Source: Promethearchaeati archaeon (GTDB lineage: Archaea > Asgardarchaeota > Heimdallarchaeia > Heimdallarchaeales > Heimdallarchaeaceae). From it: DNA of 64,000 nucleotides. The DNA lies in the NCBI GenBank assembly GCA_013166775.1, contig JABLTJ010000013.1, positions 4,071 to 68,070 on the forward strand, read 5' to 3'. The position numbers and the translations under genes were made by a program. A model generated the notes under the pieces. That model searched no databases and was not told the origin of the DNA. It worked only from the letters and a program-made list of their open reading frames with translations. Below, piece after piece: positions 8,915-38,685 of the stretch (its first letter is position 1; every line of letters begins with the position of its first letter).

Positions 8915-9062
8915 TATTGATTTTCCATTTTATGAATGTTTTCATATTCTTGTTATTCTGACTAAAATATCGTTGAGAATTCAATAAATAATTAGTGAAT
9001 ATGAAATAATATATATTATAGAGATAATGAAATTGAAAATAACAAATTATTTCATCTTGGAT

Positions 9063-9896: not shown

Positions 9897-10107
9897 TCAC
9901 ATGTCACCAGTTACGGAAAACTTCCTACTTTAAAAATTCTTTCCAGAAACATAGCAACAATTATATGCAAATGAGTTTCTACAGTCCTTGATGCTTCCAG
10001 GGACATTGTCTTTGATATTCTTCGTAATAGAATTCGTCATTCTAATAGTTGTAATAATATTCAATAGGGATCATCCTTTCTTCTAGTCTATTGTTGGTTT
10101 ATTAGGA

Positions 10108-10671: not shown

Positions 10672-10698
10672 ATTATTCTGAGATAGTTTTTAGCTCAT

Positions 10699-11532: not shown

Positions 11533-11597
11533 AACGTTATACTAATTTAAGATTATATTATTTAAAGCATTCCAGTGCAACTATAGCAATTTCAGGT

Positions 11598-21714: not shown

Positions 21715-24700
21715 GTGTGGATATTGTATAAGAACTCAATTGAGGTTATAGGCGCTCAAGAGAACAATTTACGTAATATCTCAGTTGAGATTCCACATGA
21801 TAAGTTAATTGTTATTTCGGGCATCTCTGGAAGTGGAAAGAGTTCACTTGCTTTTGATACAATTTATCTCGAAGCACAGAGAAGATATATGGAAACTTTA
21901 TCAGCTTATGCAAGGCAATTTATAGGTAATTTTGACAGACCGCAAGTTGAGCATATTGATGGTTTACGACCAACAATTTCTATTGATCAGAAAACTATAT
22001 CGAGGAATCCAAGAAGTACAGTTGGTACCCTCACTGAGATTTATGATTACATGAGAGTACTTTTTGCAAGAGTAGGAATACCTCATTGTCCAGATTGTAA
22101 AATTAGGATTGAAGCACAACCTTCAGATCAAGTAATTGAACAGATATTTGCATCTTTTGAAGGACAAAGGATCAAAATAGTTGCTCCAATTTTCGAGAAG
22201 AGGAAAGGTGAGTATAGAAAGGAATTAGCTCAATGGAAAGAAGATGGTTATGTCAGATTAATAGTTGATGGTAAAGAAGTGAACTTAGATGATGAAGAAG
22301 TTCAATTAGAGAGATATGTTGCTCATGATTTAGAAATTATTGTTGACAGGAATCGATGTGAAAGAAAGAATGAGCCTTTGATTCTTGATAGTGTCAACCT
22401 AGCACTCGAGCTCTCAAAAGGTAGGATTAAGATAATTGGAGAGAAAGAAGAAAGAGTATACTCAACAAAACTAGTCTGTCCAGAGTGCGGATTAGCTGTA
22501 AATGAATTCAATCCTAGAGACTTCTCGCACAATACAGCTGTTGGTGCTTGTAAGAGATGTAAAGGACTAGGACAAATTGCTGAGATATCTCCTCAAAAGT
22601 TCATAGTTAATCATGATCTTTCAATCGCTGATGGTGCCATTGCGACAATGACGAAGAACAAAAAACACATCACATATGCTTCTATAGGTTTGAAAAATAT
22701 CAATGTAATTGTCCAAGAACACGGATATGATATTAACACACCAATAAAGGATTTAACTGAAGATCAACTCGATAAACTACTTTATGGAACAGGTAGACAA
22801 GAATATCACTTGACATGGAACTGGGATAGTCAAGCAGCTAAATGGAGTGGGAAGGGTGAGTGGACCACTAGATGGAGAGGATTAATCCCAGCAACAATGG
22901 AAGCTTACTACAGACTTACGTCAGAACATAGGAAGCAAATATTAGAAGAGCTCATGGAACAAACAAAATGCCCTGATTGTAAGGGAATGAGACTCAAGCC
23001 CGAGAGTTTAGCTGTTTTGTTCAATGGGAAAAATATCTCTGAACTCAATAGATTAGAAATTGATGAGTGTTTAAAATTCTTCGAGGGAGTTAAGCTTACT
23101 AAAGAAGAGGAGATAATAGGGAAACCTCTACTAAAAGAAATTAAAAATAGATTATCATTCTTGTTGAAAGTAGGATTACATTATCTAACAATGAACAGAG
23201 CTGCGAGTGAGTTGAGCGGAGGAGAAGCTCAAAGAACAAGATTAGCAACTCAAATAGGTTCAAAGCTACAAGGAGTAAATTATGTCTTAGATGAGCCTTC
23301 AATAGGATTAGCTAATAGAGACAACCAAAAGCTGTTGAGTTCTCTGAAAACTCTCAGAGATGGAGGGAATACAGTCATAGTTGTTGAACATGATGAAGAT
23401 ACTCTTCGTTCAGCTGATCTGCTGTTAGATTTAGGTCCAGGAGCAGGAGATGATGGTGGAGAAGTACTATTCCTCATGGATCCAAAGGAATTATCTGAAA
23501 AAAATTCAAAGAATTCTATCACTGCAAAATATCTATTGGGATTAGATGAGATTGAGATACCTAAGAAAAGGAGAACAAGTAAAAAATTCCTTACTCTCAA
23601 AGGTGCATCTCATAATAACTTAAAGCAGATAGATGTAAGCATCCCTTTAGGAACATTCACATGTGTTACTGGAGTTTCAGGAAGTGGTAAGTCTTCTTTA
23701 GTTGCAGATACACTTTATCCAATTCTAGTAAATAAACTTCATAATGGAAAACAAAAACCAGGTCGATACAAGAGTATAGAAGGCTCAGAGAACATTGACA
23801 AAGTTGTCGTAATTGATCAATCACCTATAGGTAGAACGTCAAGATCTAATCCTGCAACCTATACAAAAGTAATGGATCATATTAGAGATTTGTTTGCAAC
23901 TATTCCAACAGCTAAGATTAGAGGGTATTCCAAAACTAGATTCAGTTTTAATACAAAATTAGGTAGATGTGAAGCGTGTAAAGGGCATGGTTATAATAAG
24001 ATAGAAATGACCCTTCTTCCCGACGTTGAAGTTGAATGTGAAATTTGCAAAAGCAAAAGATATGATGATGAGACTCTGAAAATCAAATATCAAGGTCATT
24101 CTATAGCTGACATACTTAACATGACTGTAAGTAGAGCAATGGGAGTGTTTGAAAATATACCTAAAATTCAGCGTATTTTGAAGACTTTAATTGATGTCGG
24201 ATTGGATTATATACAGCTCGGGCAATCAAGTACAACTATATCTGGTGGAGAAGCCCAGAGGATAAAACTTAGCAGAGAACTATCAAAGATATCTACAGGT
24301 AATACCCTGTATATCCTCGATGAATCGACAACGGGATTAAGTTTTGAAGATATTAAAAAGCTGTTAAATGTTCTTCAAAGATTGGTTGATAAGGGAAATA
24401 CAGTATTAATTATAGAGCATAATTTAGATGTCATCAAAGTAGCTGATTTTGTCATAGATTTAGGTCCTGATGGCGGAGAAGAAAATGGTGGGTATCTAGT
24501 AGATTTAGGTACTCCAGAAGAAATTCTTGAAAATGAGCTTTCATATACTGGACAAGCGTTGAAGAAAGTACTAACTGATGATTACATAGAGGAAGAAGTA
24601 GAACCTATAAAAATAGAAAAAGAGGATTTAGATCCATCAAAATATCTGTATGTGAGAGGAGCAACAAAGAATAATCTCAAAAGTATAAATTTAGACATTC

Positions 24701-27474
24701 CAAAAGAAAAACTTGTTGTAATCACAGGACCTAGCGGTTCAGGTAAAAGCTCTTTAGCTATAGATACTCTTTTTGCAGAAGGGCAAAGAAGGTTTGTAGA
24801 ATCATTAAGTAGTTATGCACGGCAGTTTCTTACAAAAGCTGAAAGAGCTGATGTTGATGATATAATTGGTTTGACACCCTCAATAGCTATAGATCAGCAT
24901 TCTATTTCTAAGAATCCAAGATCAATTGTTGCAACTACTACAGAAATTTATGATTATCTCCGACTTCTTTATGCAAAAGTGGGTATACCTCATTGTCCAG
25001 TATGCAATATTGTTTTAAAAAATAGAACGTCGGATGAAATAGCTAAATTAGTACTAAAGGAATATGAATCTGAAAACATAATTATCGCATCTTCTTTATC
25101 AAATGGCGAAGAAGTGAATATTAAAGAAACAATCAAGGAAATTCAAAAACAAGGATATAATAGAATTGTAATAGATGGGAAAGACTATCTAGTAGATGAA
25201 CAGATAAAAGTAAAAAAATCTTCCTCATTATCTGTAGTAATTGATAGAATAGAAGTGAATAAAGAAAACATATCTAGGACAGCTGAATCAATAGAAGCTG
25301 CAGTAAGTGTTGGCAAAGGGAGAGTTGAGATCTATTATAATGGAGAGAGAAGTATTTATTCAATAAATGCTGAATGTATAGATCATGAATATGAAGCTCC
25401 ATCTGAAATCCATCCAAGACTTTTCAGCTTTAATCACTATTCAGGAGCATGCTCAAATTGCACAGGGTTGGGAACAATAAGAAAATTTGATATAAGAAAG
25501 ATAGTCAAGAATTGGGATAAATCGATAAGTCAAGGCGCTATAGGTCCATATTCTTCTCAAAGAATGTCTAATCCTAACTCTTGGAGAAGAGCAATGCTTG
25601 ATTCTGTAGCTAAACATTTCGATTTCACAATGGATACACCAATGAAAGATTTAACTCCTCAACAACTGGATGGTTTATTTTACGGCTCAAAAGGTAAAGA
25701 TGTATCAATTAGAATCATTCGAGAAAGAGAAAAATCTTCTTCAGAATATACTAGAAGTGGACCATGGGAAGGACTCATTCAAAGATGGGTTACTTGGATG
25801 ACCACTGAAACTGAATCACGATACATTAGTCAAAGAAAAGAACAGATGCATCAATATTATAGCGAGTATAAATGCACAGATTGTAATGGACGAAAATTAA
25901 AAACAGAAGTTCTTGCGATAACAGTAGGAGATAAATCGATAAACGATCTTTCTACCTATGCAGTTGATGATTTTCTTGACTTCCTTAATACTTTGAAGCT
26001 TAATAAAAGAAGAGCAAAGATAGCGGATAGGATTATAGTTGAGTTAAAGAAAAGAGCTGAATATCTAACTGATGTGGGTTTGAGTTATCTTACTCTAGAT
26101 AGACGTTCAAGCACTTTATCTAATGGAGAAGCCCAAAGAATAAGACTCGCTTCACAGATTGGGAGTGGACTTATAGGTGTCACTTATGTCCTAGATGAAC
26201 CAACAATAGGTCTACACCCAAGAGATATAGATAAGCTGCTTACAACATTGAAGAGACTAAGAGATAATGGAAATCATGTTATCGTTGTTGAGCATGATGA
26301 CATCATAATTAAAGAATCAGATCACATGATTGAACTTGGCCCACTAGGTGGAGATCAAGGGGGGGATGTAGTTGCTGAAGGGAATACTACTAAACTTCTA
26401 CAGCGAGAAGATTCTTTGACTGCAAGCTATCTTTCTGGTTCAAAGAAAATTAAAACACCTAAGAATCGAAGGAAAGCGGAATCTTCTATTGAATTAAAAG
26501 GAGCATCTCAAAACAATTTGAAACAAATAGATGTTGAATTCGGAAAAGGAATATTTACTGCAGTAACTGGTGTCAGTGGGGCAGGTAAATCGTCTCTTGT
26601 AATTGACACACTTCAGAAAGGACTTGAAAAGAATATTCAAGGCAAAAGAACAGAAGTTGGTAAATATAAGTCACTTACAAATTTTGAAGGTATAAACAAA
26701 GTAATAGTCGTTGATCAATCCTCTTTGAGTAAATCAAGAAGGTCAAATCCATCTACGTATTTAGGAGTACAAGATAATATAAGAGATTTCTTTGCTCTTT
26801 TACCAGAATCAAAAGCTAGAGGTTTCACACCAGGTCATTTCAGTTTCAACACATACAAAGGTCAATGTAATGAGTGTCGAGGATTAGGACATAAAAGAAT
26901 AGAGTTGCTCTTTCTTTCAGATGTTTGGGTTTTATGCCCGAGTTGTAAAGGGAAGAAATACAAAAAACCTATTCTAACAGCAAGATATAGAAAAAAATCT
27001 ATTGCTGATATTTTAGAGATGACTATAGAGGAAGCATGTGAACTATTTTCGAACATAGAAAATATACGTAGACCTCTTCAATTAGCAGTAGATGTAGGGC
27101 TAGGATATCTACGAATGGGACAACCTACAACTACAATAAGTGGAGGGGAAGCAGAAAGGTTGAAAATAGCTAGAGAATTGTCAAAGAAAACACATGATAA
27201 AAGTATCTATTTATTGGATGAACCTTCACAAGGATTACACTTCTACGATATTGAAAAACTTGTTAATATTCTGCATCGTTTAGCAGATGAAGGAAACTCA
27301 ATTGTTGTTATTGATCATAATATGGACATAATAAAGAACGCAGATAGGATTATAGATTTAGGTCCTGAAGGTGGGACTAGAAATGGTGGATATTTAGTAG
27401 CTAAAGGAACACCTGAGGAGATTATCAATCAACAGGAAGGGTATACATGGGAGTATCTTAAGCAAGCTTCCTAG
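21715..27474 (+). CDS. uvrA: Tandem UvrA-UvrA fusion (two complete excinuclease ABC subunit A units in one polypeptide)
   Basis: 1919 aa from a GTG start. Unit 1 (~21715..24573) and unit 2 (~24643..27474) each carry two Walker A sites (GISGSGKSS/GVSGSGKSS and GPSGSGKSS/GVSGAGKSS). Each also has two ABC signatures, the UvrB-binding-type and insertion-type segments, and a C-terminal Cx2C...Cx2C zinc module. Confidence 0.9.
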   Translation: MWILYKNSIEVIGAQENNLRNISVEIPHDKLIVISGISGSGKSSLAFDTIYLEAQRRYMETLSAYARQFIGNFDRPQVEHIDGLRPTISIDQKTISRNPRSTVGTLTEIYDYMRVLFARVGIPHCPDCKIRIEAQPSDQVIEQIFASFEGQRIKIVAPIFEKRKGEYRKELAQWKEDGYVRLIVDGKEVNLDDEEVQLERYVAHDLEIIVDRNRCERKNEPLILDSVNLALELSKGRIKIIGEKEERVYSTKLVCPECGLAVNEFNPRDFSHNTAVGACKRCKGLGQIAEISPQKFIVNHDLSIADGAIATMTKNKKHITYASIGLKNINVIVQEHGYDINTPIKDLTEDQLDKLLYGTGRQEYHLTWNWDSQAAKWSGKGEWTTRWRGLIPATMEAYYRLTSEHRKQILEELMEQTKCPDCKGMRLKPESLAVLFNGKNISELNRLEIDECLKFFEGVKLTKEEEIIGKPLLKEIKNRLSFLLKVGLHYLTMNRAASELSGGEAQRTRLATQIGSKLQGVNYVLDEPSIGLANRDNQKLLSSLKTLRDGGNTVIVVEHDEDTLRSADLLLDLGPGAGDDGGEVLFLMDPKELSEKNSKNSITAKYLLGLDEIEIPKKRRTSKKFLTLKGASHNNLKQIDVSIPLGTFTCVTGVSGSGKSSLVADTLYPILVNKLHNGKQKPGRYKSIEGSENIDKVVVIDQSPIGRTSRSNPATYTKVMDHIRDLFATIPTAKIRGYSKTRFSFNTKLGRCEACKGHGYNKIEMTLLPDVEVECEICKSKRYDDETLKIKYQGHSIADILNMTVSRAMGVFENIPKIQRILKTLIDVGLDYIQLGQSSTTISGGEAQRIKLSRELSKISTGNTLYILDESTTGLSFEDIKKLLNVLQRLVDKGNTVLIIEHNLDVIKVADFVIDLGPDGGEENGGYLVDLGTPEEILENELSYTGQALKKVLTDDYIEEEVEPIKIEKEDLDPSKYLYVRGATKNNLKSINLDIPKEKLVVITGPSGSGKSSLAIDTLFAEGQRRFVESLSSYARQFLTKAERADVDDIIGLTPSIAIDQHSISKNPRSIVATTTEIYDYLRLLYAKVGIPHCPVCNIVLKNRTSDEIAKLVLKEYESENIIIASSLSNGEEVNIKETIKEIQKQGYNRIVIDGKDYLVDEQIKVKKSSSLSVVIDRIEVNKENISRTAESIEAAVSVGKGRVEIYYNGERSIYSINAECIDHEYEAPSEIHPRLFSFNHYSGACSNCTGLGTIRKFDIRKIVKNWDKSISQGAIGPYSSQRMSNPNSWRRAMLDSVAKHFDFTMDTPMKDLTPQQLDGLFYGSKGKDVSIRIIREREKSSSEYTRSGPWEGLIQRWVTWMTTETESRYISQRKEQMHQYYSEYKCTDCNGRKLKTEVLAITVGDKSINDLSTYAVDDFLDFLNTLKLNKRRAKIADRIIVELKKRAEYLTDVGLSYLTLDRRSSTLSNGEAQRIRLASQIGSGLIGVTYVLDEPTIGLHPRDIDKLLTTLKRLRDNGNHVIVVEHDDIIIKESDHMIELGPLGGDQGGDVVAEGNTTKLLQREDSLTASYLSGSKKIKTPKNRRKAESSIELKGASQNNLKQIDVEFGKGIFTAVTGVSGAGKSSLVIDTLQKGLEKNIQGKRTEVGKYKSLTNFEGINKVIVVDQSSLSKSRRSNPSTYLGVQDNIRDFFALLPESKARGFTPGHFSFNTYKGQCNECRGLGHKRIELLFLSDVWVLCPSCKGKKYKKPILTARYRKKSIADILEMTIEEACELFSNIENIRRPLQLAVDVGLGYLRMGQPTTTISGGEAERLKIARELSKKTHDKSIYLLDEPSQGLHFYDIEKLVNILHRLADEGNSIVVIDHNMDIIKNADRIIDLGPEGGTRNGGYLVAKGTPEEIINQQEGYTWEYLKQAS
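24574..24642 (+). other. Acidic inter-unit linker of the UvrA-UvrA fusion
   Basis: TDDYIEEEVEPIKIEKEDLDPSK lies between the end of unit 1 (..GQALKKVL) and the start of unit 2 (YLYVRGATKNNLK). Confidence 0.7.
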
Positions 27475-27629: not shown

Positions 27630-29621
27630 ATGGATCGCAAAAAAAAAAATAGAGTTAAATGCTCTTTTCTGATTATTTTATTCTTCAATTTCAGTTATTC
27701 AACAAGCTTTAATTCTAAAAGTTTTAACTATCCTCAACTTGTTCTAAAAACTACAGGAGGGGGGATTTTACCAGACTATGCAATGTTTATTACACAGAAT
27801 TTAAGAGATATTGGAATATATGTTAAAATCCAAATTGAAGAATGGTCGGTTCTTTATGGTAAGGAGCTTTCCCCATGCAATTATGATTTAGCAATTATTA
27901 AGATGAATTTTAATCAATTTTATCCCCATCCCTCTATATATTTCTCCAATAATGGTTCAAAAAACCTTCTTTTTAAAAATACAGATTTGCCTTATTGGAG
28001 GTTTAATGAAGAAATGCTTACTTTGATGAATCAAGTAGATGATGATGAAAGACAGCAGATCTATTATGATTGGCAGCAGCAGCTAATGGATAAGATTCTA
28101 CCTTGTCTTCCTCTTTTCAATTATCAGAAGCAAATTTCAACATGGTCTACTTTGGAAGGATATAACGTCAATTGGTCTATTTCGAATAATATGCCTTATC
28201 TCTCATTTAATGAAACTCATGAGGGACAAGAGAGCACAGATGAATTCATATTCAGTGATTCAAGTTTTCAAAATCTTAATCCTTTAATGTATACTGATGA
28301 TTCAAGTGTGAATTTAGCCAGCTTTCTTACTGAACAAATTATTCAAATTTCTCCTGAAAATGAGATACTAAAAACTGGATTAATTTATGATTGGGAAGAG
28401 GTGAACGAGAGCTATTATCGTTTCTTTGTAAGAGATAATATCTATTGGAATCCTTCATACAACATAACAGAAAGAACTGAAAACTCACCTCCTTTAAGTA
28501 TTCTCACTACTCCACTGATGAGTGGTTTAAAAGGTGATATTAGCAATGGAACTAATCAAAAAGTAACTGCAAAAGATGTTGCTTTTACACTTCTTTCTTT
28601 AGCCACACAAAATTCAAGTAAATATTACGATCAATATAATTGGATTAGAAGAATAGATATGAATTCAACAAATGATTTAATTTTTTCAATTTTGGTTGAT
28701 TCCAATCCTCAAACGAAAGAACTAGATTTGTTTCAAGGTATTCTTTTCAATTTCCTTTTCATGTTGAATGTTCCTTGTTTACCAGAATTTTTCTTAAATT
28801 CTAGTGATGAAACAATATTTTATACTTCTGGTAGCATACCAGTGAAAGGACTTTACAATGCAAAGAATTCAGTTCAGTGGAACACATATAGTTGTTCAGC
28901 TTTTGGCTGTGGGAAGTATATGTTGGATTATACTCATAGAAATGTAGAGACTCTTCTTCAAGCAAATCCTAATTGGTTCGGAATAGGTCCTCGAGAGGGT
29001 AATAATCAGTCTCTATCTATAGAAAAGGTAAAAATAAGAGATATTTCAGATGATTTCACTTCTTTAGAGGAATTTAAAGCTGGAAAGCTCGATTTGATGG
29101 ATGTCACTTCTTTTAAATCTGAAAGTGTAAAAATGCAAATTGACGATAGATTCGAAATTCATGACACCCTCTCAAGTGATATGACATGTCTTGTTTTCAA
29201 TTTAGATAGACCTTTTATTGGAGGTGCTGACAATTATGTTTTTATGGATACCCCTGGTAAAGAAGAATATACAAAAGGTGTTGCTATTCGTAAAGCAATC
29301 TGTTATGCGATAGATCGAGAAGAGATGAATGAGATTTTACATGATGGAGATTACATAATTTCTCATAATCCTATCCCACCATTTTTCTCATTCTACTATT
29401 ATGACAATATTATCAAGTACTATAGAGATTTAGATGCTGCTTACGAATGGTTGAGGGCTTCTGGACGTGGTGTGTATCTTACTATATATTATCCCGAAGA
29501 TCATAGTGATGCTTTCTTTATTCTAACATGGATTATCGTTGTCGCTGCTAGTTTACAAGTACTAGTTATAATTTTGAATCGTTTAAGCAAATTAAATAGG
29601 AGAAATAAAAAATATGTGTAG
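27630..29621 (+). CDS. Family-5 (OppA/DppA-type) solute-binding-protein homologue, apparently circularly permuted, with signal peptide and C-terminal TM anchor
   Basis: 663 aa. The N-terminal ~190 aa resemble the C-terminal block of SBP_bac_5 proteins (AMFITQNLRDIGIYVKIQIEEW..YDLAII..; DDDERQQIYYDWQQQLMDKILPCLPLF). The following sequence resembles the N-terminal and middle blocks (YRFFVRDNIYWNP, KVTAKDVAFTL, GCGKYML, ANPNWFG, FKAGKLDLMD, IRKAICYAIDREEMNEIL). It ends with a TM helix plus a basic tail. Confidence 0.6.
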   Translation: MDRKKKNRVKCSFLIILFFNFSYSTSFNSKSFNYPQLVLKTTGGGILPDYAMFITQNLRDIGIYVKIQIEEWSVLYGKELSPCNYDLAIIKMNFNQFYPHPSIYFSNNGSKNLLFKNTDLPYWRFNEEMLTLMNQVDDDERQQIYYDWQQQLMDKILPCLPLFNYQKQISTWSTLEGYNVNWSISNNMPYLSFNETHEGQESTDEFIFSDSSFQNLNPLMYTDDSSVNLASFLTEQIIQISPENEILKTGLIYDWEEVNESYYRFFVRDNIYWNPSYNITERTENSPPLSILTTPLMSGLKGDISNGTNQKVTAKDVAFTLLSLATQNSSKYYDQYNWIRRIDMNSTNDLIFSILVDSNPQTKELDLFQGILFNFLFMLNVPCLPEFFLNSSDETIFYTSGSIPVKGLYNAKNSVQWNTYSCSAFGCGKYMLDYTHRNVETLLQANPNWFGIGPREGNNQSLSIEKVKIRDISDDFTSLEEFKAGKLDLMDVTSFKSESVKMQIDDRFEIHDTLSSDMTCLVFNLDRPFIGGADNYVFMDTPGKEEYTKGVAIRKAICYAIDREEMNEILHDGDYIISHNPIPPFFSFYYYDNIIKYYRDLDAAYEWLRASGRGVYLTIYYPEDHSDAFFILTWIIVVAASLQVLVIILNRLSKLNRRNKKYV

Positions 29622-29650
29622 AATATTACACAAAAATAGTTATCTTTGTA

Positions 29651-29660
29651 TAAAATATAA
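29651..29660 (+). promoter_or_regulatory. TATA-like element upstream of the P1-P3/rSAM/methyltransferase cassette
   Basis: TAAAATATAA lies ~45 nt upstream of the ATG at 29705, in the 74-nt gap after the SBP gene. Composition-based guess only. Confidence 0.25.
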
Positions 29661-29704
29661 GATATTTGAGAAATTTGTAACTAAATGATATAAATGTGGT
29701 AAGT

Positions 29705-30202
29705 ATGGATAAGGGAAGAATAAATGAAGTAGGAGAGTTATTGGAAGTTGCCCCTTCTAATTTAAAAGAATCTAAATTTAAAGTATTAGTAAAACGACTT
29801 ACTTATCCTCTGGCCCAGATTGCATTTTTTATATTTTCTATTATTTCAGGAATTTTACTTGGATATTGGGAAAGTCAAATACAAATAGGTTACCCTTTTA
29901 ATCAAATCACAAGAATTTATAGAGCAGGGATTCCGACTCTCTTGATTATCCATAGTGGAAATACGCTATTTTCGATAAAAAATCGCAAGAAATATCGTAT
30001 TTCAAATTTCCTAACAGGATCTATAGTTATTATTAATCTGATACTGTCTGCGATTAGTTTCTTTTTTATCTATAAATTTATGGATGCAAATCTAGGTCTT
30101 AGTGCTTCAGTTCGTTATGGTACTTTCCATAAGAATATAGATAAAATAATTATTTCAAAGATTTCTTCAACTATGAAAGAGGTGTATTATTTAGAAGTGT
30201 GA
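29705..30202 (+). CDS. Three-TM protein P1, paralogue family of unknown function
   Basis: ATG at 29705 (the track offers GTG at 29696). N-terminal INEVGELLEVAPSNLKESK, three hydrophobic helices, a GYP loop, a basic loop SIKNRKKY and a C-terminal RYGTFHK are all shared with P2/P3. Confidence 0.6.
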   Translation: MDKGRINEVGELLEVAPSNLKESKFKVLVKRLTYPLAQIAFFIFSIISGILLGYWESQIQIGYPFNQITRIYRAGIPTLLIIHSGNTLFSIKNRKKYRISNFLTGSIVIINLILSAISFFFIYKFMDANLGLSASVRYGTFHKNIDKIIISKISSTMKEVYYLEV

Positions 30203-30208
30203 TTTAAT

Positions 30209-30664
30209 ATGAACGATGAGAAAATAAACGAAGTTGGAAACTTGTTGGAAATAGATTCTTCAGATATTCAAGAATCAAAACAAAAAAAAATCTGGAAAAA
30301 ACTAATTTTCCCTGTTGTTCAAATTTCAACTATCGTCCTTTCAGCAATCTTAGGTGCTTTAATGGGATACTGGGAAAATAACAGATCATCAGGTTATCCT
30401 GCTTCATGGCTTTACCCAAGGATTTTCTTTTTAGGTCCGATAGCGCTTTTTGGTTTCATTGTAGGAAACATATCAATATCCTCAAAGAACTATAAAAAAA
30501 TTGGATTAAGAGGTGTTTATGCAGCTATTATTATTTTTATGAATATATTGATCTCTGTAGCAAGCTTAGCTTTTACTTATATGGCAATTCGAACTACACC
30601 ACCAGTGATTCTAGGTAGTTATGTAATGTATGGTACTTATAAAAAGCCAAAATATGGAAAATAA
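30209..30664 (+). CDS. Three-TM protein P2, paralogue of P1/P3
   Basis: 151 aa with INEVGNLLEIDSSDIQESK, GYWEN..SGYP, SSKNYKKIGLRG and YGTYKKP. It starts 7 nt after the P1 stop. Confidence 0.65.
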   Translation: MNDEKINEVGNLLEIDSSDIQESKQKKIWKKLIFPVVQISTIVLSAILGALMGYWENNRSSGYPASWLYPRIFFLGPIALFGFIVGNISISSKNYKKIGLRGVYAAIIIFMNILISVASLAFTYMAIRTTPPVILGSYVMYGTYKKPKYGK

Positions 30665-31142
30665 GTGGTTGAATTTGAATAAAGAGAAATTAGATGAAAC
30701 TGGAAAAGTGTTGAATGTTGATTCTTCAGATATTCAAAAATCAAAATCAAAACAAATCTTGAAGAAACTTATTTTTCCTCTTGTTCAGGTTTCAACTATC
30801 ATTCTTTCAGCAACCTCAGGAGCTTTACTGGGATATTTGGAGAAAAAAGAACCATCAGGTTATCCATATGCATGGGATTTCCCGAAGATTTACTTTTTTG
30901 GCCCAATGGCACTTCTAGGTTTTAGTACAGGGAATATATTAATATCTTCAAAAAACTATAAGAAAACCGGATTAAGAGGTACTTCTGCTAGCATTATTGT
31001 TTTTCTAAGTATAGTTATCTCAGTAGCAAGCTTAGTTTTTATTTATATGGCTGTTCAAAATCCACCACCTCCTCTTCAAGGATACGTTCCGCCATTTAAT
31101 GTTTCAATAGATTATGATACCTTTAGAAAGAGAAATTTATAA
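30654..31142 (+). CDS. Three-TM protein P3, paralogue of P1/P2
   Basis: I prefer the ATG at 30654 (MENKWLNLNKEKLDETGKVLNVDSSDIQKSK) to the track start at 30630; it overlaps the P2 stop. SSKNYKKTGLRG and DYDTFRKR are present. By hand count, about 100 of 120 aligned nt are identical to P2 around the first TM helix. Confidence 0.65.
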   Translation: MENKWLNLNKEKLDETGKVLNVDSSDIQKSKSKQILKKLIFPLVQVSTIILSATSGALLGYLEKKEPSGYPYAWDFPKIYFFGPMALLGFSTGNILISSKNYKKTGLRGTSASIIVFLSIVISVASLVFIYMAVQNPPPPLQGYVPPFNVSIDYDTFRKRNL

Positions 31143-31152
31143 TGTGATTAAT

Positions 31153-32217
31153 ATGAAATATAATCTTGATTGCGCAGTTTGGGAATTAACTCTTGAATGT
31201 AATCTTAAGTGTAAACATTGTGGTTCTAGTGCAGGAAAGGCTAGAAAAAACGAGTTAACTACTCAAGAATGCTTCAATCTTTGCGAAGATTTATCAGAAG
31301 TTGGTTGTAGAGAAGTTAGTTTAATGGGTGGGGAACCTTTTGTAAGAGAAGATTGGAATGAAATAGCCTGGTGTGTTAAAGATTTAGGGATGGATTTAGC
31401 TTTTGTAAGTAATGGAATACTCATTCCTCAAGTAATAGAGAAGCTTAATCTATTAGAACCTGTAGTAGTTGGAGTTTCTCTTGATGGTGTAAAAGAAACA
31501 CATGATTATATTAGAAGAAAAGGATCTTATGACGCAGCTCATCAAGCTATAGAACTACTCTTGGAAAATGATATTCAAACGACTGTAATAACCACAATAA
31601 GTAAAACAAATTTCAAAGAATTATTGGAATTGAAGAAACTCATTTATGGAAAAGGAATAAACTGGCAAATTCAAGTATGTATGCCATTTGGATATTTTGA
31701 TCCATCTTTAGTAATTAGTCAAGAAGAATATTATGCTTCTGCTATGTTTATTGTTTCAGAACGGATAAAAAACAAATTCAAAGACATGCCTGTGGTAGGA
31801 GCACATTGTTATGGTTATTTCTCTCATTTACTTCCAAGAAACAATCGATGGGATGGTTGTACTGCAGGAAGATCCACAGTTGGTTTAACTTCAGAAGGTT
31901 CAGTAGTTGGGTGTTTATCAATGGGGAATAACCAATTTATTGAAGGTAATGTGAGAGATAGAAGTTTCAAAGAGATCTGGGAAGATCCTAATTCTTTTGC
32001 TTATAATAGAAATTTCAAACGAGATGATTTCGGTGAAAATTGCATTGATTGTTTTTACGGAGAAAAATGTAAAGGTGGATGTAACTCAACATCTTATCAC
32101 CTTACAAAGAAATTTCATAACACACCTTTATGTTTAAGAAAAATAGAAGAAAAGTTGTTTGATGTGAAGATTCCTAAGAAAGAAAGATCCAATGTCCAAG
32201 AAGTGAAATCATTATGA
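31153..32217 (+). CDS. Radical SAM enzyme with C-terminal SPASM domain
   Basis: ECNLKCKHC is the CxxxCxxC motif (31198..31221). GGEPF is present. Seven SPASM cysteines are present: C249, C267, C310-x2-C-x5-C-x3-C323 and C340, numbered from the track start at 31114. I prefer the ATG at 31153. Confidence 0.85.
   Translation: MKYNLDCAVWELTLECNLKCKHCGSSAGKARKNELTTQECFNLCEDLSEVGCREVSLMGGEPFVREDWNEIAWCVKDLGMDLAFVSNGILIPQVIEKLNLLEPVVVGVSLDGVKETHDYIRRKGSYDAAHQAIELLLENDIQTTVITTISKTNFKELLELKKLIYGKGINWQIQVCMPFGYFDPSLVISQEEYYASAMFIVSERIKNKFKDMPVVGAHCYGYFSHLLPRNNRWDGCTAGRSTVGLTSEGSVVGCLSMGNNQFIEGNVRDRSFKEIWEDPNSFAYNRNFKRDDFGENCIDCFYGEKCKGGCNSTSYHLTKKFHNTPLCLRKIEEKLFDVKIPKKERSNVQEVKSL
31858..32133 (+). 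other. SPASM auxiliary Fe-S cluster cysteine signature within the rSAM gene
   Basis: CTAGRSTVGLTSEGSVVGC ... CIDCFYGEKCKGGC ... C follows the canonical spacing Cx2Cx5Cx3C. Confidence 0.8.
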
Positions 32218-33500
32218 TAAAATTGAATCTAGGTTGTGGTATTTTTTACAAACCAGGATATATAAACATTGATCTTGTTGAAGATAAAATTGCTGATCAG
32301 ATTGCTGACGTTACCAACCTTCCTTATGAGGAAAATAGTGTAGATCTAATAGAAGCATCTCATATAATTGAACATTTTGATGTAAATCAAGTTCCTTTTG
32401 TTCTTTCTGAATGGTACAGAATTTTGAAACCAGGTGGGAAACTAGAGATTGAAATACCAAATTTGTTAAAATCTGTAATTAAACTGAAATTAAGTAAGTA
32501 CAGAAAACAATTATTAACTTTGAAATTTCTGTTTGGAGTAGATTATAGAGGGAATATTCACAAGATAGGTTTTACAAGATTATTCTTAAAAAAATCTCTT
32601 TCCAGAACAGGTTTCAAAAAAATTAGAAGAAAGAAACAAAGAAGCTTCAAAGAAGAAAGAGGTATGAGATACCAGGCAAGCAAACCATTAGATGCTGATT
32701 TATCAAAAAAGAAACATTTTATTACTACTTTCCGTTCAGAAATCAACTCTAATTTTGAAATAAAAGAGACTTTATTCTATGAAGTTTTAGAGAACAACTG
32801 TTTCTTATCGCTTTTTAATATTCTACCTGAAAATATTCAGAAATTTTTCAACACATTTAGGATAACTAATTTCTGTGCTTCTCTATCAATAATTCATCCT
32901 AAATTATCTAAAATCTTTCTCGAGATATTTCCTGAAAATCAGACAAATGAAATCAACAAAGAAGTATTAGACTATCTTGATGAAATTAAATTTCAATCTC
33001 TACTTCTAACTGATTGGATAAAGTGGAGAAAAGATCAATTTAATTTTCCCATTTCTATAACCAAATTCTTCAATCACTGGACATGGAAAATTAATCAAAT
33101 GTTAAACAAAAAAACTGATTTTAAGAAAATGTTGAGCTACTTAACGTCTTTAGAACAAAACTCTAATGAATTTTTCTCAATTGAGATTATTAATATTCAA
33201 TCACTCAGACTAGCTAATCAAGGAATAAGAGCTTTTGAAAAGGAGATTTTTGTAGAAGCTAAAAAGCTTCTTGAAGAGAGTCTTAGAATGAATCCTTCAA
33301 ATATTGAAGCAAATCTAAATCTTGCACGTCTTCTTAGAAAACTAGATCACAATCCAAATCAAATATCTAACTTATATGAATTTGTTCTGTCTGATTTATC
33401 TAATAGGAGAATTAAAAGGAAAATAAGGAAAGAGTATCAATTGATTCTCCTTAACAAGGAGAAAAAAGAAGAATTGAGTCCAATTCAATTGAGAAGTTAA
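32214..33500 (+). CDS. Class I SAM-dependent methyltransferase fused to a long helical/TPR-like C-terminal region
   Basis: 428 aa. LNLGCG is motif I. The Methyltransf_11-type core includes VDLIEASHIIEHF and ILKPGGKLEIEIP. The C-terminal ~230 aa are helical and include EAKKLLEESLRMNPSNIEANLNLARLL. Its ATG overlaps the rSAM TGA as ATGA. Confidence 0.75.
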   Translation: MIKLNLGCGIFYKPGYINIDLVEDKIADQIADVTNLPYEENSVDLIEASHIIEHFDVNQVPFVLSEWYRILKPGGKLEIEIPNLLKSVIKLKLSKYRKQLLTLKFLFGVDYRGNIHKIGFTRLFLKKSLSRTGFKKIRRKKQRSFKEERGMRYQASKPLDADLSKKKHFITTFRSEINSNFEIKETLFYEVLENNCFLSLFNILPENIQKFFNTFRITNFCASLSIIHPKLSKIFLEIFPENQTNEINKEVLDYLDEIKFQSLLLTDWIKWRKDQFNFPISITKFFNHWTWKINQMLNKKTDFKKMLSYLTSLEQNSNEFFSIEIINIQSLRLANQGIRAFEKEIFVEAKKLLEESLRMNPSNIEANLNLARLLRKLDHNPNQISNLYEFVLSDLSNRRIKRKIRKEYQLILLNKEKKEELSPIQLRS

Positions 33501-33555
33501 AATTTATTTTTTAAATCACAAAAGATATCAATGAGTAAGGAGAATTTTAAAAAGA

Positions 33556-34803
33556 ATGACTATAAAGAACTTTGGAGTTACGAAAGAATCAGCTGAAAAA
33601 CTAGAAACTGAAGATGATTTAGCAGTTTTTCGCGATAAATTTTACATACCTGAAAACACAATTTACATGAACGGTAATTCTTTAGGATTACTACCTAAGA
33701 AGGGAGAAAAAACTCTCTTACGAGTTTTAGAAGAATGGAAAACTGGTGGAGTCCAAGGTTGGGTAAATATTGAGAAACCTTGGTTTTTTTTTGCTGAGAA
33801 ATTGGGTGAAAAAGCTGCTTTTCTAGTTGGAGCTAAATCTTCTGAAGTTATCGCAACAGGTACTACTACAATTAACATTCATTCATTGATCAGTACATTT
33901 TATGAACCTGAAGGGAAGAAAACTAAGATTCTAGCTGATGTATTGAATTTTCCTACAGATATTTATGCCCTTCAAAGTCAAGTTAAACTAAAAGGACTAA
34001 ATCCTGAAGAACACTTGGTTCTAGTTAAAAGCAAAGATGGAAGATTCTTAGATGAGCAAACTATTGTCGATGCCATGACTGATGAAATAGCTATTATTCT
34101 GTTGCCATCAGCTCTGTTTAGAAGTGGTCAACTCTTAGATATGAAATACTTAACTGAAGAAGCTCATAAAAGAGGAATTTTAATCGGATGGGACTGTTCT
34201 CATTCAGTTGGAGTTGTTCCCCATTATTTTGATGAATGGGGAGTTGATTTCGCAGTCTGGTGTAGTTACAAATATCTCAATGCGGGTCCAGGTGCAAGTG
34301 CATTTCTTTATATCAACGAGAAACACTTTACCAAAGAAGCTGCATTATCAGGTTGGTTTGGTTATGTAAAAGAGAAACAATTTGAGTTGAACTTACATTT
34401 TGAACAAGCGAAAAATGCAGGAGGGTGGCAGATATCATCCCCATCAATTTTAGGTTCAGCAGCACTTGAAGGAGCATTAGATCTTATATTAGAAGCAGGA
34501 ATAGATGAAATTAGAGAAAAATCATTGAAGATGACTTCCTATATGATTTTCCTTGTTGATGAATTGCTTTCTGGAGAGCCATATAACTTCTCTATTGGAA
34601 CACCGAGAGAAAAGGAGAGAAGAGGAGGTCATGTAGCTTTAGAGCACAAAGAAGCATACAAAATACATGAAGAATTACTAAAGAAAAATGTAGTACATGA
34701 TTTCCGTCCTCCGAACATTGTTCGTATCACTCCATCAGCTCTCTACAATACTTATACAGAGATATGGGAAGTAATTTCCATCATAAAGAGTCTGTTTGAT
34801 TGA
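33556..34803 (+). CDS. kynU: Kynureninase (PLP-dependent)
   Basis: 415 aa with GNSLGLLP, FPTDIYALQSQ, WGVDFAVWCSYKYLNAGPGA (the PLP-lysine block) and SGWFG. An AAGGAG lies upstream of the ATG. Confidence 0.9.
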   Translation: MTIKNFGVTKESAEKLETEDDLAVFRDKFYIPENTIYMNGNSLGLLPKKGEKTLLRVLEEWKTGGVQGWVNIEKPWFFFAEKLGEKAAFLVGAKSSEVIATGTTTINIHSLISTFYEPEGKKTKILADVLNFPTDIYALQSQVKLKGLNPEEHLVLVKSKDGRFLDEQTIVDAMTDEIAIILLPSALFRSGQLLDMKYLTEEAHKRGILIGWDCSHSVGVVPHYFDEWGVDFAVWCSYKYLNAGPGASAFLYINEKHFTKEAALSGWFGYVKEKQFELNLHFEQAKNAGGWQISSPSILGSAALEGALDLILEAGIDEIREKSLKMTSYMIFLVDELLSGEPYNFSIGTPREKERRGGHVALEHKEAYKIHEELLKKNVVHDFRPPNIVRITPSALYNTYTEIWEVISIIKSLFD

Positions 34804-36693: not shown

Positions 36694-38685
36694 CTATTTC
36701 TTCTTCTTTACTATAACTGAAATTACTACAATAGCTATCATAATTACATAAGACTCTAAAGCTGATTTATTTGGATTATCTGGATTCAGTGGATCATAAC
36801 TATTTTCTACCTCTTCTCCGTCAGATATACCATCACCATCAGTATCATTGTTGTTTGGATCTGTGAGATGGATTAAAACCTCATCACCATCAGTTAAACC
36901 ATCAGCATCTGAATCTTTTTCTGTTGGATCAGTTTCATAATCATTAACTTCGTCTCCATCTAAGAGTCCGTCTAAATCAGTATCATTGTTGTTTGGATTA
37001 GTAAAATAGACTTGCACCTCTTCACCGTCTTTCAATCCGTCTTCATCTGTGTCATCATTCTTTGGGTCTGTTTCATATTCATTAACTTCTTCGCCATCTT
37101 TTAATCCATCACTATCAGTATCACTTTTCATTGGATGTGTATTAAGAGCATATTCCTCAATGTTAGTTAAATCATCGTCATCTGGATCTTCAGCAGAATC
37201 ATCATTCCATGGATCAAGGTTCTTTTCAACTTCCCATTTCGGGTCCATTCCATCGTCATCTGTGTCTTCCAAAGGATATAAATCTGAAGTTCCTGCAGTT
37301 CCTCCGATTGGATAATCTCCTGTACCTGACCAATCATCCCAATAATTTCCTTTCTCTGTACTTGTATTATACCATATATTATCTAGTCCATCATCTTTTA
37401 CCTGTGTTCCACCATTGTTATTTTCAATGAAGATATTTCTATAGATTTTATTGTTGTCTGAAGTATCTCCCCAACCGGCAAGGTTAATCCCATGCTCAGT
37501 ACAGTATTTGATTACATTCTGATAAATTTCACAATAATTTGATTCAGCAAAATACATTCCATATTGAGTACTGGTTTCAATAAAATTATTTCTTATTATT
37601 ATATACTCAGACATCGGAAGATACATTCCATATTCCCAATTATCTTTACATGTATTGTTATCTATAATACAGTAAGTAGACAAATCAACATAGATTCCTA
37701 TATTTTGTCCTTGGCAAAGATTATTTCGGATAATAACATTACTAGAGAATTCATAAACATATATCCCAAAATCTCCATCTTCATCATATTGATTGTTTTC
37801 TATGATAACATTTGTTGATTTATGCACAGTAATAGTTCTATCTTCTAGTTTATTATGAGCAATATTTACATTATTAGAACCCGTTACTTCAATACCACAA
37901 TAATTATTTTCAATAATCACATCATTACAATAGAAAAGAAATATTCCCTTAGAAGGAGATTTCATCTCTTGATTTATTATTTGAATATCACTACAATCAA
38001 TTAGAAAAATCTGACCATAATCTGAAGCTGAAAAAGTTAGACTTGAATTACCAACAAACCAAGCTATAGGTTTTCCATTTAGAGTATTATCGTTGATTTG
38101 CATTGTCGAAACTTCAGATAAATCAACATCATACATGATACTAATTCCACCTTGAGTAAATTCATTATCTTCTATAACTACAAAGGGTGAATACTCAATA
38201 TGTATCCCACCCCATTCATTGTTTTCCAGTGTATTATTAGCAATTATTGCATAAGATGCACTATACAAAATGATTCCTCCGTGTGTATCCCTTATTGTGT
38301 TTTCCAGAATCTGGACAGTATTGAGTCCTACTGATGAAATATAAATTGCAATTGTAAAGCCTTCTATCAAACAATTTTGAATTACAAAATTTTTAGTAGT
38401 AGATGTTATCTCTATTGCAGTACCTGAATCAGCAGAGATATGATAATCCTCTATTCTGTAGGGATTACCTGGAGATCCATCTCCTGGGAATCCATATGAT
38501 ATGAAATCAGCATCGCTATCAATTTCAATCGGCAAATAAATTGTATATGTAAGATTCGAGGAATTATTTTCTTCCAGATAGGTTGCTAGATTTGTTCGTG
38601 ATAAAAGTGATAGATATAACATGAATAACAAAAAAACCAAAAAAATCGATAGTACTTTTTTTCCATTATTTCTTTTATTTTTCAT
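36694..38685 (-). CDS. Right-handed parallel beta-helix (PbH1/NosD-like) surface protein with thrombospondin-type-3-like Ca-binding repeats and a C-terminal TM anchor
   Basis: 663 aa with a signal peptide. About 300 aa of ~22-aa coils carry recurring N..x..GI(y/h/f) patterns (IENN, IRNN, IDNN). These are followed by DxDxDG repeats, a TM helix and KKKK. Confidence 0.8.
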   Translation of the reverse strand: MKNKRNNGKKVLSIFLVFLLFMLYLSLLSRTNLATYLEENNSSNLTYTIYLPIEIDSDADFISYGFPGDGSPGNPYRIEDYHISADSGTAIEITSTTKNFVIQNCLIEGFTIAIYISSVGLNTVQILENTIRDTHGGIILYSASYAIIANNTLENNEWGGIHIEYSPFVVIEDNEFTQGGISIMYDVDLSEVSTMQINDNTLNGKPIAWFVGNSSLTFSASDYGQIFLIDCSDIQIINQEMKSPSKGIFLFYCNDVIIENNYCGIEVTGSNNVNIAHNKLEDRTITVHKSTNVIIENNQYDEDGDFGIYVYEFSSNVIIRNNLCQGQNIGIYVDLSTYCIIDNNTCKDNWEYGMYLPMSEYIIIRNNFIETSTQYGMYFAESNYCEIYQNVIKYCTEHGINLAGWGDTSDNNKIYRNIFIENNNGGTQVKDDGLDNIWYNTSTEKGNYWDDWSGTGDYPIGGTAGTSDLYPLEDTDDDGMDPKWEVEKNLDPWNDDSAEDPDDDDLTNIEEYALNTHPMKSDTDSDGLKDGEEVNEYETDPKNDDTDEDGLKDGEEVQVYFTNPNNNDTDLDGLLDGDEVNDYETDPTEKDSDADGLTDGDEVLIHLTDPNNNDTDGDGISDGEEVENSYDPLNPDNPNKSALESYVIMIAIVVISVIVKKKK
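36766..37122 (-). repeat. Five tandem coding repeats (four of 23 aa, plus one longer terminal copy) of the DxDxDGxxDGxE type
   Basis: The copies are DTDSDGLKDGEEVNEYETDPKND, DTDEDGLKDGEEVQVYFTNPNNN, DTDLDGLLDGDEVNDYETDPTEK, DSDADGLTDGDEVLIHLTDPNNN and DTDGDGISDGEEVENSYDPLNP. Confidence 0.8.

Follow-up and report, generated by a model that had tools for sequence, protein, structure and literature searches.

A tightly linked radical SAM/SPASM enzyme, methyltransferase and multicopy two-tyrosine membrane proteins: a probable RiPP-like maturation system with an archaea-centred distribution

What might three tandem membrane proteins be doing in one operon with a radical S-adenosylmethionine (SAM) enzyme and a methyltransferase? 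The question is raised by a 64,000-nucleotide stretch of a Heimdallarchaeaceae genome (GenBank assembly GCA_013166775.1, contig JABLTJ010000013.1, positions 4,071 to 68,070), hereafter called the window and numbered from its first letter; the contig is GC-poor (~32% GC). Five genes constitute one tight same-strand operon at 29705–33500 (+): three encode the related three-transmembrane (3-TM) proteins P1, P2 and P3, the fourth a radical SAM/SPASM enzyme and the last a methyltransferase that bears a helical domain. A preliminary description of this locus had put forward the multicopy membrane proteins as candidate substrates of the SPASM enzyme, or as its partners, and the whole as a candidate for a maturation system not yet described. 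Our analysis makes it probable that the cassette is a single operon for protein maturation resembling that of RiPPs (peptides that are ribosomally synthesized and modified post-translationally), and that P1, P2 and P3 are its substrates and not accessory proteins.

The near-zero gaps between the genes were correctly noted at the outset, as were the exact 10 nt between the P3 stop codon and the ATG of the radical SAM gene (31153) and the ATGA at 32214–32217 that is shared by the TGA of the radical SAM gene and the ATG of the methyltransferase gene. Two details had to be corrected. The spacer between P1 and P2 is 6 nt, not 7, and where the P2 stop codon (30662–30664) had been said to overlap the P3 ATG, this ATG actually lies within the end of P2, the two genes overlapping by 11 nt. 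Comparison with the closest relative (L089) indicates purifying selection, with ratios of nonsynonymous to synonymous substitution rates (dN/dS) of 0.33 for P2, 0.35 for P3, 0.10 for the radical SAM enzyme and 0.19 for the methyltransferase.

The linkage of the genes recurs across phyla. A scan with the radical SAM enzyme of one genome per GTDB species yielded at least 579 loci, the best 80 of which were examined; more than 566 close homologues each bear no other name than “radical SAM protein”, and orthologue identity ranges from 45 to 86%. Within the best 80 loci, the Asgard archaea are represented by Heimdall-, Hod-, Hermod-, Hel- and Thorarchaeota, Promethearchaeota (including the cultured Promethearchaeum syntrophicum MK-D1, whose locus with three P proteins lies at NZ_CP042905.2, 1573117–1586142) and Atabeyarchaeia; other loci belong to Thermoplasmatota, the DPANN groups Undinarchaeota and Nanohalarchaeota, Patescibacteria and Elusimicrobiota. 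Neighbourhoods were searched with hidden Markov models (HMMs) of the radical SAM enzyme, the methyltransferase and the P family against six-frame open reading frames (ORFs), and all neighbouring ORFs were clustered all against all. Short precursor forms were detected with a motif expression whose background was one hit in 707 ORF segments of the window; a first expression for the leader missed the Elusimicrobia and Helarchaeota precursors, which were found solely by reading ORF lists. In 45 loci the radical SAM gene is flanked on each side by 3 kb or more; 44 of these contain a precursor, 43 the methyltransferase and 42 both, so that orthologues elsewhere do keep the P-like neighbours and the methyltransferase. 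Clustering of ~1,800 neighbour ORFs from 83 loci left just three recurrent families, the radical SAM enzyme in 83 loci, the methyltransferase in 73 and P-like proteins, and no fourth family was present in more than nine of the 83 loci, antisense artefacts aside. The gene order varies (P–radical SAM–methyltransferase, radical SAM–methyltransferase–P or methyltransferase–P–radical SAM) and the P genes occur in one to seven tandem copies; that the linkage is retained despite the varied order points to functional coupling rather than inherited synteny.

The reverse search gave the same picture. A profile of five P sequences, run against 1.84 billion representative proteins, retrieved 77 clusters, nearly all of them stand-alone proteins of ~140–170 amino acids. 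When four of these P homologues were looked up, the radical SAM gene adjoined P in both contigs that could be judged (2/2), the other two contigs being shorter than 1.6 kb; in L089, known from an earlier word-index search, the radical SAM and methyltransferase genes likewise adjoin the P genes. The possibility that P homologues commonly occur without the radical SAM gene was thus not borne out.

P2 and P3 are 60% identical as proteins and match at 101 of 120 positions in their best ungapped 120-nt window, close to the roughly 100 of 120 reported before, and P1 is indeed more diverged, with 36% identity to P2 and 36% to P3. All three carry the motifs first read from them: the leader (I/L)(N/D)E(V/T)G..L.(V/I)..S(N/D)(L/I), GYPx, the basic S.KN.KK and the C-terminal Y(G/D)T(F/Y)xK. 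Their elements follow a fixed order, namely a presumably cytoplasmic N-terminal helix-turn-helix leader (h-x-x-h-G-x-x-L-x-h-x-x-S-D/N-h), TM1, G-Y-P-x, a TM2–TM3 hairpin and Y-(G/D)-T-(F/Y)-x-K. Of the three hydrophobic helices described earlier, TM1 and TM3 pass on the Kyte–Doolittle scale (19-residue window, threshold 1.5) in all three proteins and TM2 only in P2, its signal being weaker in P1 and P3. An AlphaFold2 (AF2) model of P2 (42-sequence alignment, predicted local distance difference test (pLDDT) score 84.9) places helices at residues 3–12, 17–58 (running into TM1), 71–94 (TM2) and 102–127 (TM3); the segments with the tyrosine motifs are non-helical and of low confidence, with a pLDDT of ~67 in the GYP loop and of 50–61 in the C-terminal tail. 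The profile classification proposed in the preliminary description was carried out, and it assigned P1–P3 to no family in Pfam, NCBIfam, PADLOC or among PDB folds. Matches to Bax1-I, DUF6132, TM7S3, SLATT, UriT and REase_II lay far below cut-off and were dismissed as hydrophobic noise, the P2 model found no structural relative in the PDB with Foldseek (best E-value 0.84), and Pfam and NCBIfam gave nothing significant for six precursors of other types.

Proteins at the P position of other loci form a graded series. The 3-TM form (form a; 120–170 amino acids, one to seven tandem copies) occurs in Heimdall, Hod, Hermod and Loki lineages, Thermoplasmatota, DPANN and Patescibacteria. Thorarchaeota, a second Loki clade and Atabeyarchaeia have a single-TM form (form b), in which leader and one TM segment are followed by an uninterrupted core at the C terminus, either Y-x-P-G-[TS]-x-Y-G-[ST]-I-x-P-x-D-F or else Y-P-x-G-T-x-Y-S-[ST]-V-x-x-x-D-F. 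Thermoplasmata loci with two radical SAM paralogues encode soluble leader–core peptides of 55–65 amino acids (form c), for example MNNTFKLKIHQLGKMVGLNKNDITQVLSDTVYEQISLSSGPSWYPGGRYGTISIKEFEK, and one precursor of 85 amino acids (locus L054) carries three tandem cores, LYKAGTDYGTVSPND, VYKAGTYYGTVSSKD and VYKAGTYYGTISIRDF, with the core VYKAGTxYGT[VI]Sxx[DF]. A Helarchaeota locus (L031, 5475–5988 on an 844-kb contig) has three hydrophilic Lys/Pro-rich peptides of 46–65 amino acids (form d) that occupy precisely the space from the methyltransferase gene to the radical SAM gene and that, having neither leader nor TM segment, keep only GYP[FY] and P-x-YGVY-[KS]; judged by position and motifs, they are the putative minimal substrates of the family. 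In two Elusimicrobia precursors (form e) the leader is followed by a signal of the lipoprotein type, whose lipobox reads LSAC or LAAC, and a linker then connects to the core, CGPYPGYPCGTRYYTVSxADF.

Two tyrosine motifs, Y-P and Y-[G/N/S]-[V/T/S]-[Y/F/I/V], are common to all forms, and an N-terminal helix motif, h-G-x-x-h-x-h-x-x-x-D/E-h, to all bar the leaderless peptides. Of 99 non-redundant 3-TM members, all have YP and 98 have Y[G/N]V[Y/F]; across 42 3-TM homologues retrieved independently of the radical SAM gene, the sole invariant columns are Y63, P64 and Y141. The residue after the second tyrosine is Gly in 66 of 98 3-TM members, among them P1 and P2, and in most single-TM and soluble forms. 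The other third has N, A, D, S or Y there (P3 has Y-D-T), and elsewhere Y-S-[ST] is found in Loki-B forms and Y-Y-T in Elusimicrobia. Two positions after the second tyrosine, no residue other than V, T, S, I or A is found. A profile–profile alignment with hhalign of the 3-TM form (A5) against forms b, c and e (A6) reached 91.8% probability (E = 7.5e-7) and spans the leader, TM1 and the Y-P motif. By this comparison P1–P3 are homologues of leader–core peptides. The ancestral precursor may have consisted of a leader and a two-tyrosine core of ~15 residues, and the 3-TM form would then have arisen by insertion of a TM hairpin between the two tyrosine motifs; since a hairpin brings the chain back to the membrane face from which it set out, the motifs would stay adjacent.

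It is these forms that favour substrates over partners, because the homologous precursors without TM segments keep the leader and the tyrosine motifs, or the tyrosine motifs alone, and because one precursor carries three tandem cores. Together with the linkage in 44 of 45 loci, the TM-less leader–core homologues lend support to the earlier suggestion that the membrane neighbours serve the SPASM enzyme. The triple-core precursor itself lies in a Thermoplasmatales metagenome-assembled genome (MAG), where three radical SAM/SPASM paralogues surround it (L054, 4361–9698) and no methyltransferase was detected; the locus suggests a sub-variant whose enzymes were duplicated along with the multiplying of its cores. 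Two further cassettes have features of their own. A bacterial metagenome contig of 427 kb (L006) carries a methyltransferase–P–radical SAM module with a single precursor that contains each tyrosine motif twice, near an FtsH gene (9039–12236) interrupted by an intein (Intein_splicing, LAGLIDADG), and directly 3′ of a seven-precursor cassette in a Heimdallarchaeota MAG (L001) an enzyme of the glycyl-radical kind (PFL-like, with Gly_radical) is encoded together with its activase (8466–11833).

The radical SAM enzyme has the hallmarks that had been read from its sequence. The CxxxCxxC motif is present as CNLKCKHC at residues 16–23, and the seven-cysteine SPASM signature is complete (C236, C254, C297, C300, C306, C310 and C327) with the exact Cx2Cx5Cx3C spacing (C297-x2-C300-x5-C306-x3-C310); all seven cysteines are invariant in 13 orthologues. 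Pfam recognizes PF04055 (81.7 bits, cut-off 29.5) and PF13186 (34.8 bits, cut-off 21.5), and the radical SAM domain begins at residue 12 with no N-terminal extension. The enzyme belongs to no curated NCBIfam family: it matches 80 of them, every one below cut-off. Highest are TIGR03913, “GDL motif peptide-associated radical SAM/SPASM maturase” (199 bits, cut-off 592), TIGR04103, “nif11-class peptide radical SAM maturase 3” (195 bits, cut-off 725) and TIGR04133, “rSAM_w_lipo” (143 bits, cut-off 425), followed by MftC (140 bits, cut-off 265), AhbD (131 bits, cut-off 500) and NirJ (129 bits); PqqE (81.5 bits, cut-off 381) and MoaA (69 bits) score lower. Going by the NCBIfam names, we take TIGR03913 to be of the XncB/XyeB type and TIGR04103 of the PlpX type. 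Compared with the PDB, a profile of the 13 orthologues lies nearest to SkfB, PqqE, anSME, SuiB and CteB. On these scores the closest curated families are peptide maturases, and the closest structurally solved relatives are modifiers of peptides or proteins. No known non-peptide family claimed the enzyme, the top scores being those of peptide maturases; the haem and sirohaem SPASM enzymes AhbC, AhbD and NirJ were considered and set aside, as they score below the peptide maturases and below cut-off.

The methyltransferase (PF08241, 39.3 bits, cut-off 21.2) is fused to a helical domain, as proposed. The AF2 model (34-sequence alignment, pLDDT 89.4) consists of a Rossmann domain at ~1–156 and an all-helical region at 166–412 with paired helices at 323–412. 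Tetratricopeptide repeat (TPR) models match this protein below cut-off (TPR_19, 20.4 bits; TPR_17, 18.5 bits), and several family members carry TPR matches to PF00515, PF13181 or PF07719. Invariant residues include G7, C8, G9, N18, D20, E53, H54 and F55; G7-C8-G9 lie in the SAM-binding motif I “LNLGCG”, D20 is the acidic residue after strand 2, and the E-H-F triad might suit deprotonation of an O or C acceptor. Foldseek aligns the Rossmann domain with class I methyltransferases of the PDB at a probability of 1.0, but these are generic, the RiPP methyltransferase LahSB ranking 13th, and point to no particular methyl acceptor. The helical domain had no specific Foldseek match and a PDB sequence search with the methyltransferase gave no match at all. 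Outside the family, the closest kin of the catalytic domain are methyltransferase domains fused to GT2 glycosyltransferases.

We infer from these data that modification occurs and, likewise, which atoms would be joined, what would accept the methyl group, in which order the steps would follow and what final topology and biological role would result. The leader helix would dock the new precursor on the radical SAM/SPASM enzyme, possibly aided by the helical/TPR-like domain of the methyltransferase, whose translation is coupled to that of the radical SAM gene, and radical chemistry would centre on the invariant tyrosines. The most likely reaction would be a C–C crosslink of the cyclophane type from the Tyr ring to the β-substituted residue at +2 (Y-x-V/T/S), or one that joins both tyrosine motifs; a Tyr–Tyr link between the two motifs may be formed. 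We would rank a Tyr-centred C–C crosslink first and tyramine excision second, because nothing but V, T, S, I or A occurs at +2 while Gly at +1 is found in only about two thirds. The class I methyltransferase would then methylate the product. In the 3-TM form both tyrosine motifs lie on one face of the membrane, and the TM segments would set the two modified motifs side by side outside the cytoplasm, with the product remaining membrane-anchored.

As to the orientation, P2 has 10 basic residues in its N-terminal flank and loop 2 vs 7 in loop 1 and the tail, and the lipobox precursors of Elusimicrobia would independently indicate an exported core. Neither the radical SAM enzyme nor the methyltransferase has a signal sequence on direct reading. 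Radical SAM chemistry requires reducing conditions and SAM, and modification should therefore precede membrane insertion or export. In the single-TM forms, whose core is a short tail behind the TM helix, that helix would not yet have left the ribosome at termination; insertion would therefore be post-translational and compatible with prior modification.

Several observations weigh against reading the cassette as a RiPP-like maturation system. With 199 bits against a cut-off of 592 and 195 against one of 725, the radical SAM enzyme falls far short of its two nearest families, and their chemistry can therefore not be transferred to it. A RiPP recognition element (RRE), common though not universal in radical SAM-dependent RiPP-type systems, was found neither in the enzyme nor as a PqqD-like partner nearby (Pfam, NCBIfam and neighbourhood clustering), which makes leader recognition a conjecture; the Helarchaeota peptides lack any leader, so that the leader must be dispensable in at least one lineage. 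Unlike for most secreted RiPPs, neighbour clustering over the 83 loci identified no linked protease or exporter, and the methyltransferase is absent from two of the 45 full-flank loci. Finally, the count of basic residues favours an N-in orientation of P2, with both tyrosine motifs outside, only modestly, and such an orientation would oblige the enzymes to act before insertion, yet 3-TM proteins usually insert co-translationally. We regard modification before insertion of the 3-TM form as the weakest link of the model.

The alternatives differ in how much of this model they retain. An unlikely one, though the most serious, keeps system and substrates and turns the radical SAM enzyme into a splicease, which would cut out tyramine at X-Y-G and leave an α-keto-β-amino acid, as in the PlpX and RhaX spliceotides. 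The second-best NCBIfam match (TIGR04103, presumably the PlpX family) points in this direction, as does the prevalence of Gly after the second tyrosine, and a tested PlpXY splice tag, GAVAAGYGVVFPG, includes YGV (PMC10533398). An enzyme without RRE beside a conserved leader helix also matches the prediction for binary splicease systems, whose leader α-helix would bind and activate the enzyme without an RRE protein (PMC11414181). Against excision stand the third of 3-TM members with a residue other than Gly (N, A, D, S or Y; P3 is one of them), the Loki-B and Elusimicrobia forms given above, the first invariant motif, which is Y-P and not X-Y-G, the +2 residue (V/T/S/A), which is better conserved than the Gly, and the TIGR04103 score of 195 bits, far under 725. 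Less probable again is that the modified tyrosine motifs form a membrane-tethered redox or metal cofactor akin to pyrroloquinoline quinone (PQQ) or mycofactocin, and hence a housekeeping component and not a natural product. The product would then be a modified membrane protein bearing a methylated Tyr-derived crosslink or cofactor, whose TM hairpin unites the two motifs on the outer face, with a conserved physiological role; we would put at the same low level the reading that it serves anaerobic cells of Asgard archaea, Thermoplasmatota, DPANN and the Candidate Phyla Radiation (CPR), for instance in redox or electron transfer, in the binding of metals or in envelope attachment. In favour of a cofactor are the strong conservation of the radical SAM enzyme (55–70% identity across archaeal and bacterial phyla, dN/dS 0.10), the lack of any linked exporter, protease or immunity gene in the neighbour clustering of the 83 loci, and core motifs that are kept while the rest of the precursor drifts, the opposite of hypervariable antibiotic RiPP cores. 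MftC and PqqE, moreover, are among the related families, and each acts on a Tyr in a short precursor (PMC10114670). Their scores of 140 and 81.5 bits nevertheless remain under the cut-offs (265 and 381), no MftB- or PqqD-type chaperone and no linked partner oxidoreductase were found by clustering of the neighbours, and three to seven divergent tandem copies are unusual for cofactor precursors.

The remaining two alternatives give up P1–P3 as substrates. In the first, they are membrane partners (scaffold, immunity or export) and the enzymes modify a membrane lipid or a small molecule, after the model of the archaeal Gms/Gmm, Grs and Tes. In its favour, P1–P3 are polytopic, and archaeal SPASM/twitch radical SAM enzymes for tetraether lipids do exist and are found clustered with a methylase (PMC11214058). 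A PDB match to the Tes structure, 7tol, is weak (E = 8.4e-8) and confined to the radical SAM core. We consider this very improbable. TM-less homologous precursors accompany the same enzymes, and membrane anchoring is therefore dispensable to the system; the invariant residues of P lie in a flexible loop and tail, not in the helices; and Patescibacteria and Elusimicrobiota have the module too. The Gms proteins, homologous to AhbD, have 400 or more amino acids and a lipid-binding extension, and their methylase Gmm is a B12-dependent radical SAM enzyme (PMC11214058), whereas the enzyme here has 337–354 amino acids (354 in the window, with no extension), scores 131 bits against the AhbD cut-off of 500 and has a class I methyltransferase as partner. 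On length, family scores and partner type, an identity with Gms, Grs or Tes was rejected. Hardly credible, lastly, is a known anti-phage defence cassette, with a viperin-like radical SAM enzyme and membrane effectors. Small multicopy TM proteins are common defence effectors, and PADLOC pVip models match the radical SAM core with 77 bits. This match is to the generic core (residues 10–194), covers none of the SPASM domain (residues 236–300) and is much weaker than the 199 bits of the peptide maturase; P1–P3 and the methyltransferase have no meaningful PADLOC match, and the genes around the locus are of the housekeeping type (uvrA, ABC transporter, kynureninase), with synteny kept in L089. On PADLOC coverage and scores a viperin or defence identity was rejected. 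A maturation system that acts on P1–P3 accordingly remains the reading that we prefer.

The features of the cassette are listed in Table 1. The AT-rich region with its TATA-like box is presumably the operon promoter, and the T-rich run presumably the terminator, because archaea use oligo-T terminators.

Table 1. Positions of the cassette features in the window.
Feature	Position	Strand	Basis
AT-rich intergenic region 5′ of P1	29622–29704	+	direct sequence reading
TATA-like ATAAAATATA	29650–29659	+	direct sequence reading
P1, alternative in-frame GTG start	29696	+	
P1, precursor-like 3-TM protein, 165 amino acids	29705–30202	+	ORF from ATG; P-family HMM 177 bits
P1, leader helix	29720–29764	+	
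P1, GYPF	29888–29899	+	
P1, YGTFHK	30116–30133	+	
P2, precursor-like 3-TM protein, 151 amino acids	30209–30664	+	
P2, leader	30224–30268	+	
P2, GYPA	30392–30403	+	
P2, YGTYKK	30629–30646	+	
P3, precursor-like 3-TM protein, 162 amino acids	30654–31142	+	
P3, leader	30690–30734	+	
P3, GYPY	30858–30869	+	
P3, YDTFRK	31113–31130	+	
Radical SAM/SPASM enzyme, 354 amino acids	31153–32217	+	Pfam domains, Cys motifs
Radical SAM enzyme, CxxxCxxC	31198–31221	+	
Radical SAM enzyme, SPASM Cys codons	31858 to 32131	+	
Class I SAM methyltransferase with all-helical TPR-like domain	32214–33500	+	PF08241, AF2 model
T-rich run TTTATTTTTT, 3 nt past methyltransferase stop	33503–33512	+	direct sequence reading

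Directly 3′ of the cassette lies a kynureninase ORF (33556–34803, +; TIGR01814, 367 bits, cut-off 246); clustering of the neighbour ORFs showed that this adjacency is not conserved in other lineages. On the 5′ side, 27630–29621 (+) encodes a family 5 solute-binding protein (SBP_bac_5) with a hydrophobic segment at each end, and its C-terminal hydrophobic stretch followed by RRNKK suggests a membrane-anchored archaeal substrate-binding protein. Further upstream, a 1919-amino acid ORF (21715–27474, +) is made up of two entire UvrA units joined head to tail, with the Pfam domains UvrA_inter and UvrA_DNA-bind occurring twice each, and the fusion is also found in L089. The protein of 663 amino acids encoded at 36694–38685 (−) has an N-terminal signal or anchor, right-handed β-helix-like repeats, a long run of D-x-D-x-D-G repeats of the calcium-binding type and a C-terminal TM anchor.

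The combination had been called undescribed, and this assessment holds: the radical SAM enzyme is below all NCBIfam cut-offs, the precursors have no Pfam or NCBIfam model, our full-text literature search found no description of the gene trio or its motifs, and two surveys of archaeal RiPPs and bacteriocins mention only generic radical SAM RiPP classes. The system works like a radical SAM/SPASM RiPP pathway with a tailoring methyltransferase and stands outside the curated families; split-core polytopic membrane precursors, a constant helical/TPR-like methyltransferase and a broad archaea-centred spread are what distinguish it. If our reading is correct, it constitutes a phylogenetically very broad radical SAM/SPASM maturation family (at least 579 loci, with six Asgard lineages in the 80 examined), whose precursors grade from ordinary leader–core peptides of 60 residues to polytopic membrane proteins, and the boundary between a RiPP and a post-translationally modified membrane protein would be blurred. 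A core peptide would then tolerate the insertion of a TM hairpin, the two invariant tyrosines would be a defined target for new radical chemistry, and genes that recur in the genomes of Asgard archaea and Thermoplasmatota under the labels “hypothetical protein”, “radical SAM protein” and “methyltransferase” would gain a function. The soluble members are easy to test in Escherichia coli, and the presence of the module in a cultured Asgard archaeon makes native verification feasible.

How does the cassette compare with known systems? The third-ranking family, TIGR04133 (“rSAM_w_lipo”), whose partner we assume to be a lipoprotein, and the bufferins, whose precursors presumably carry signal peptides, resemble it in the cytoplasmic modification of a precursor that bears a signal for export or of the lipoprotein type, as would apply to the Elusimicrobia members. 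They differ in that the enzyme here is under the TIGR04133 cut-off (143 vs 425 bits) and that bufferins use MNIO enzymes and not radical SAM enzymes (PMC12452194).

The Y-G-V-Y of the 3-TM consensus contains G-V-Y, which resembles the C-terminal end of MftA. Mycofactocin (MftA/B/C) and PQQ (PqqA/D/E) biosynthesis are further alike in that a radical SAM/SPASM enzyme modifies a Tyr of a small precursor, within Val-Tyr or Glu-Tyr (PMC10114670), that the enzyme is highly conserved and that no exporter or protease is needed. Here, by contrast, there is no MftB/PqqD-type chaperone, the Tyr motif is not C-terminal, the precursors are multicopy and membrane-anchored, and the MftC and PqqE scores stay below cut-off.

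Spliceotides (PlpX/PlpY; RhaX/RhaA) share a radical SAM/SPASM enzyme that acts on Tyr in X-Y-G, with TIGR04103 as the second-best family, and binary systems that, without an RRE protein, have a predicted leader α-helix instead (PMC11414181); spliceases, moreover, process tagged proteins as well as peptides. The cassette departs from them in its score below 725, the variable Gly after Tyr, the extra Y-P motif, the methyltransferase and the membrane-embedded precursors.

Closest by score are the triceptides (3-CyFE XncB, YxdB, ChlB), given the top NCBIfam match to TIGR03913. Their radical SAM/SPASM enzymes act on aromatic-X-X of a leader–core precursor, often with repeated cores, and Y-x-(V/T/S/A) of the present family has this aromatic-X-X form. 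Triceptide synthases crosslink the aromatic ring to the Cβ two residues on, and a link from Tyr-C3 to Cβ is documented (PMC11002830; PMC11499958). The enzyme in the window differs in remaining under the cut-off of 592 and in having no RRE, and the crosslink is here a proposed one. What sets the cassette apart from the triceptides is its constant helical/TPR-like methyltransferase partner, the extra Y-P motif, the mainly archaeal spread and precursors that are membrane-anchored, with a core that in the window is split by a TM hairpin.

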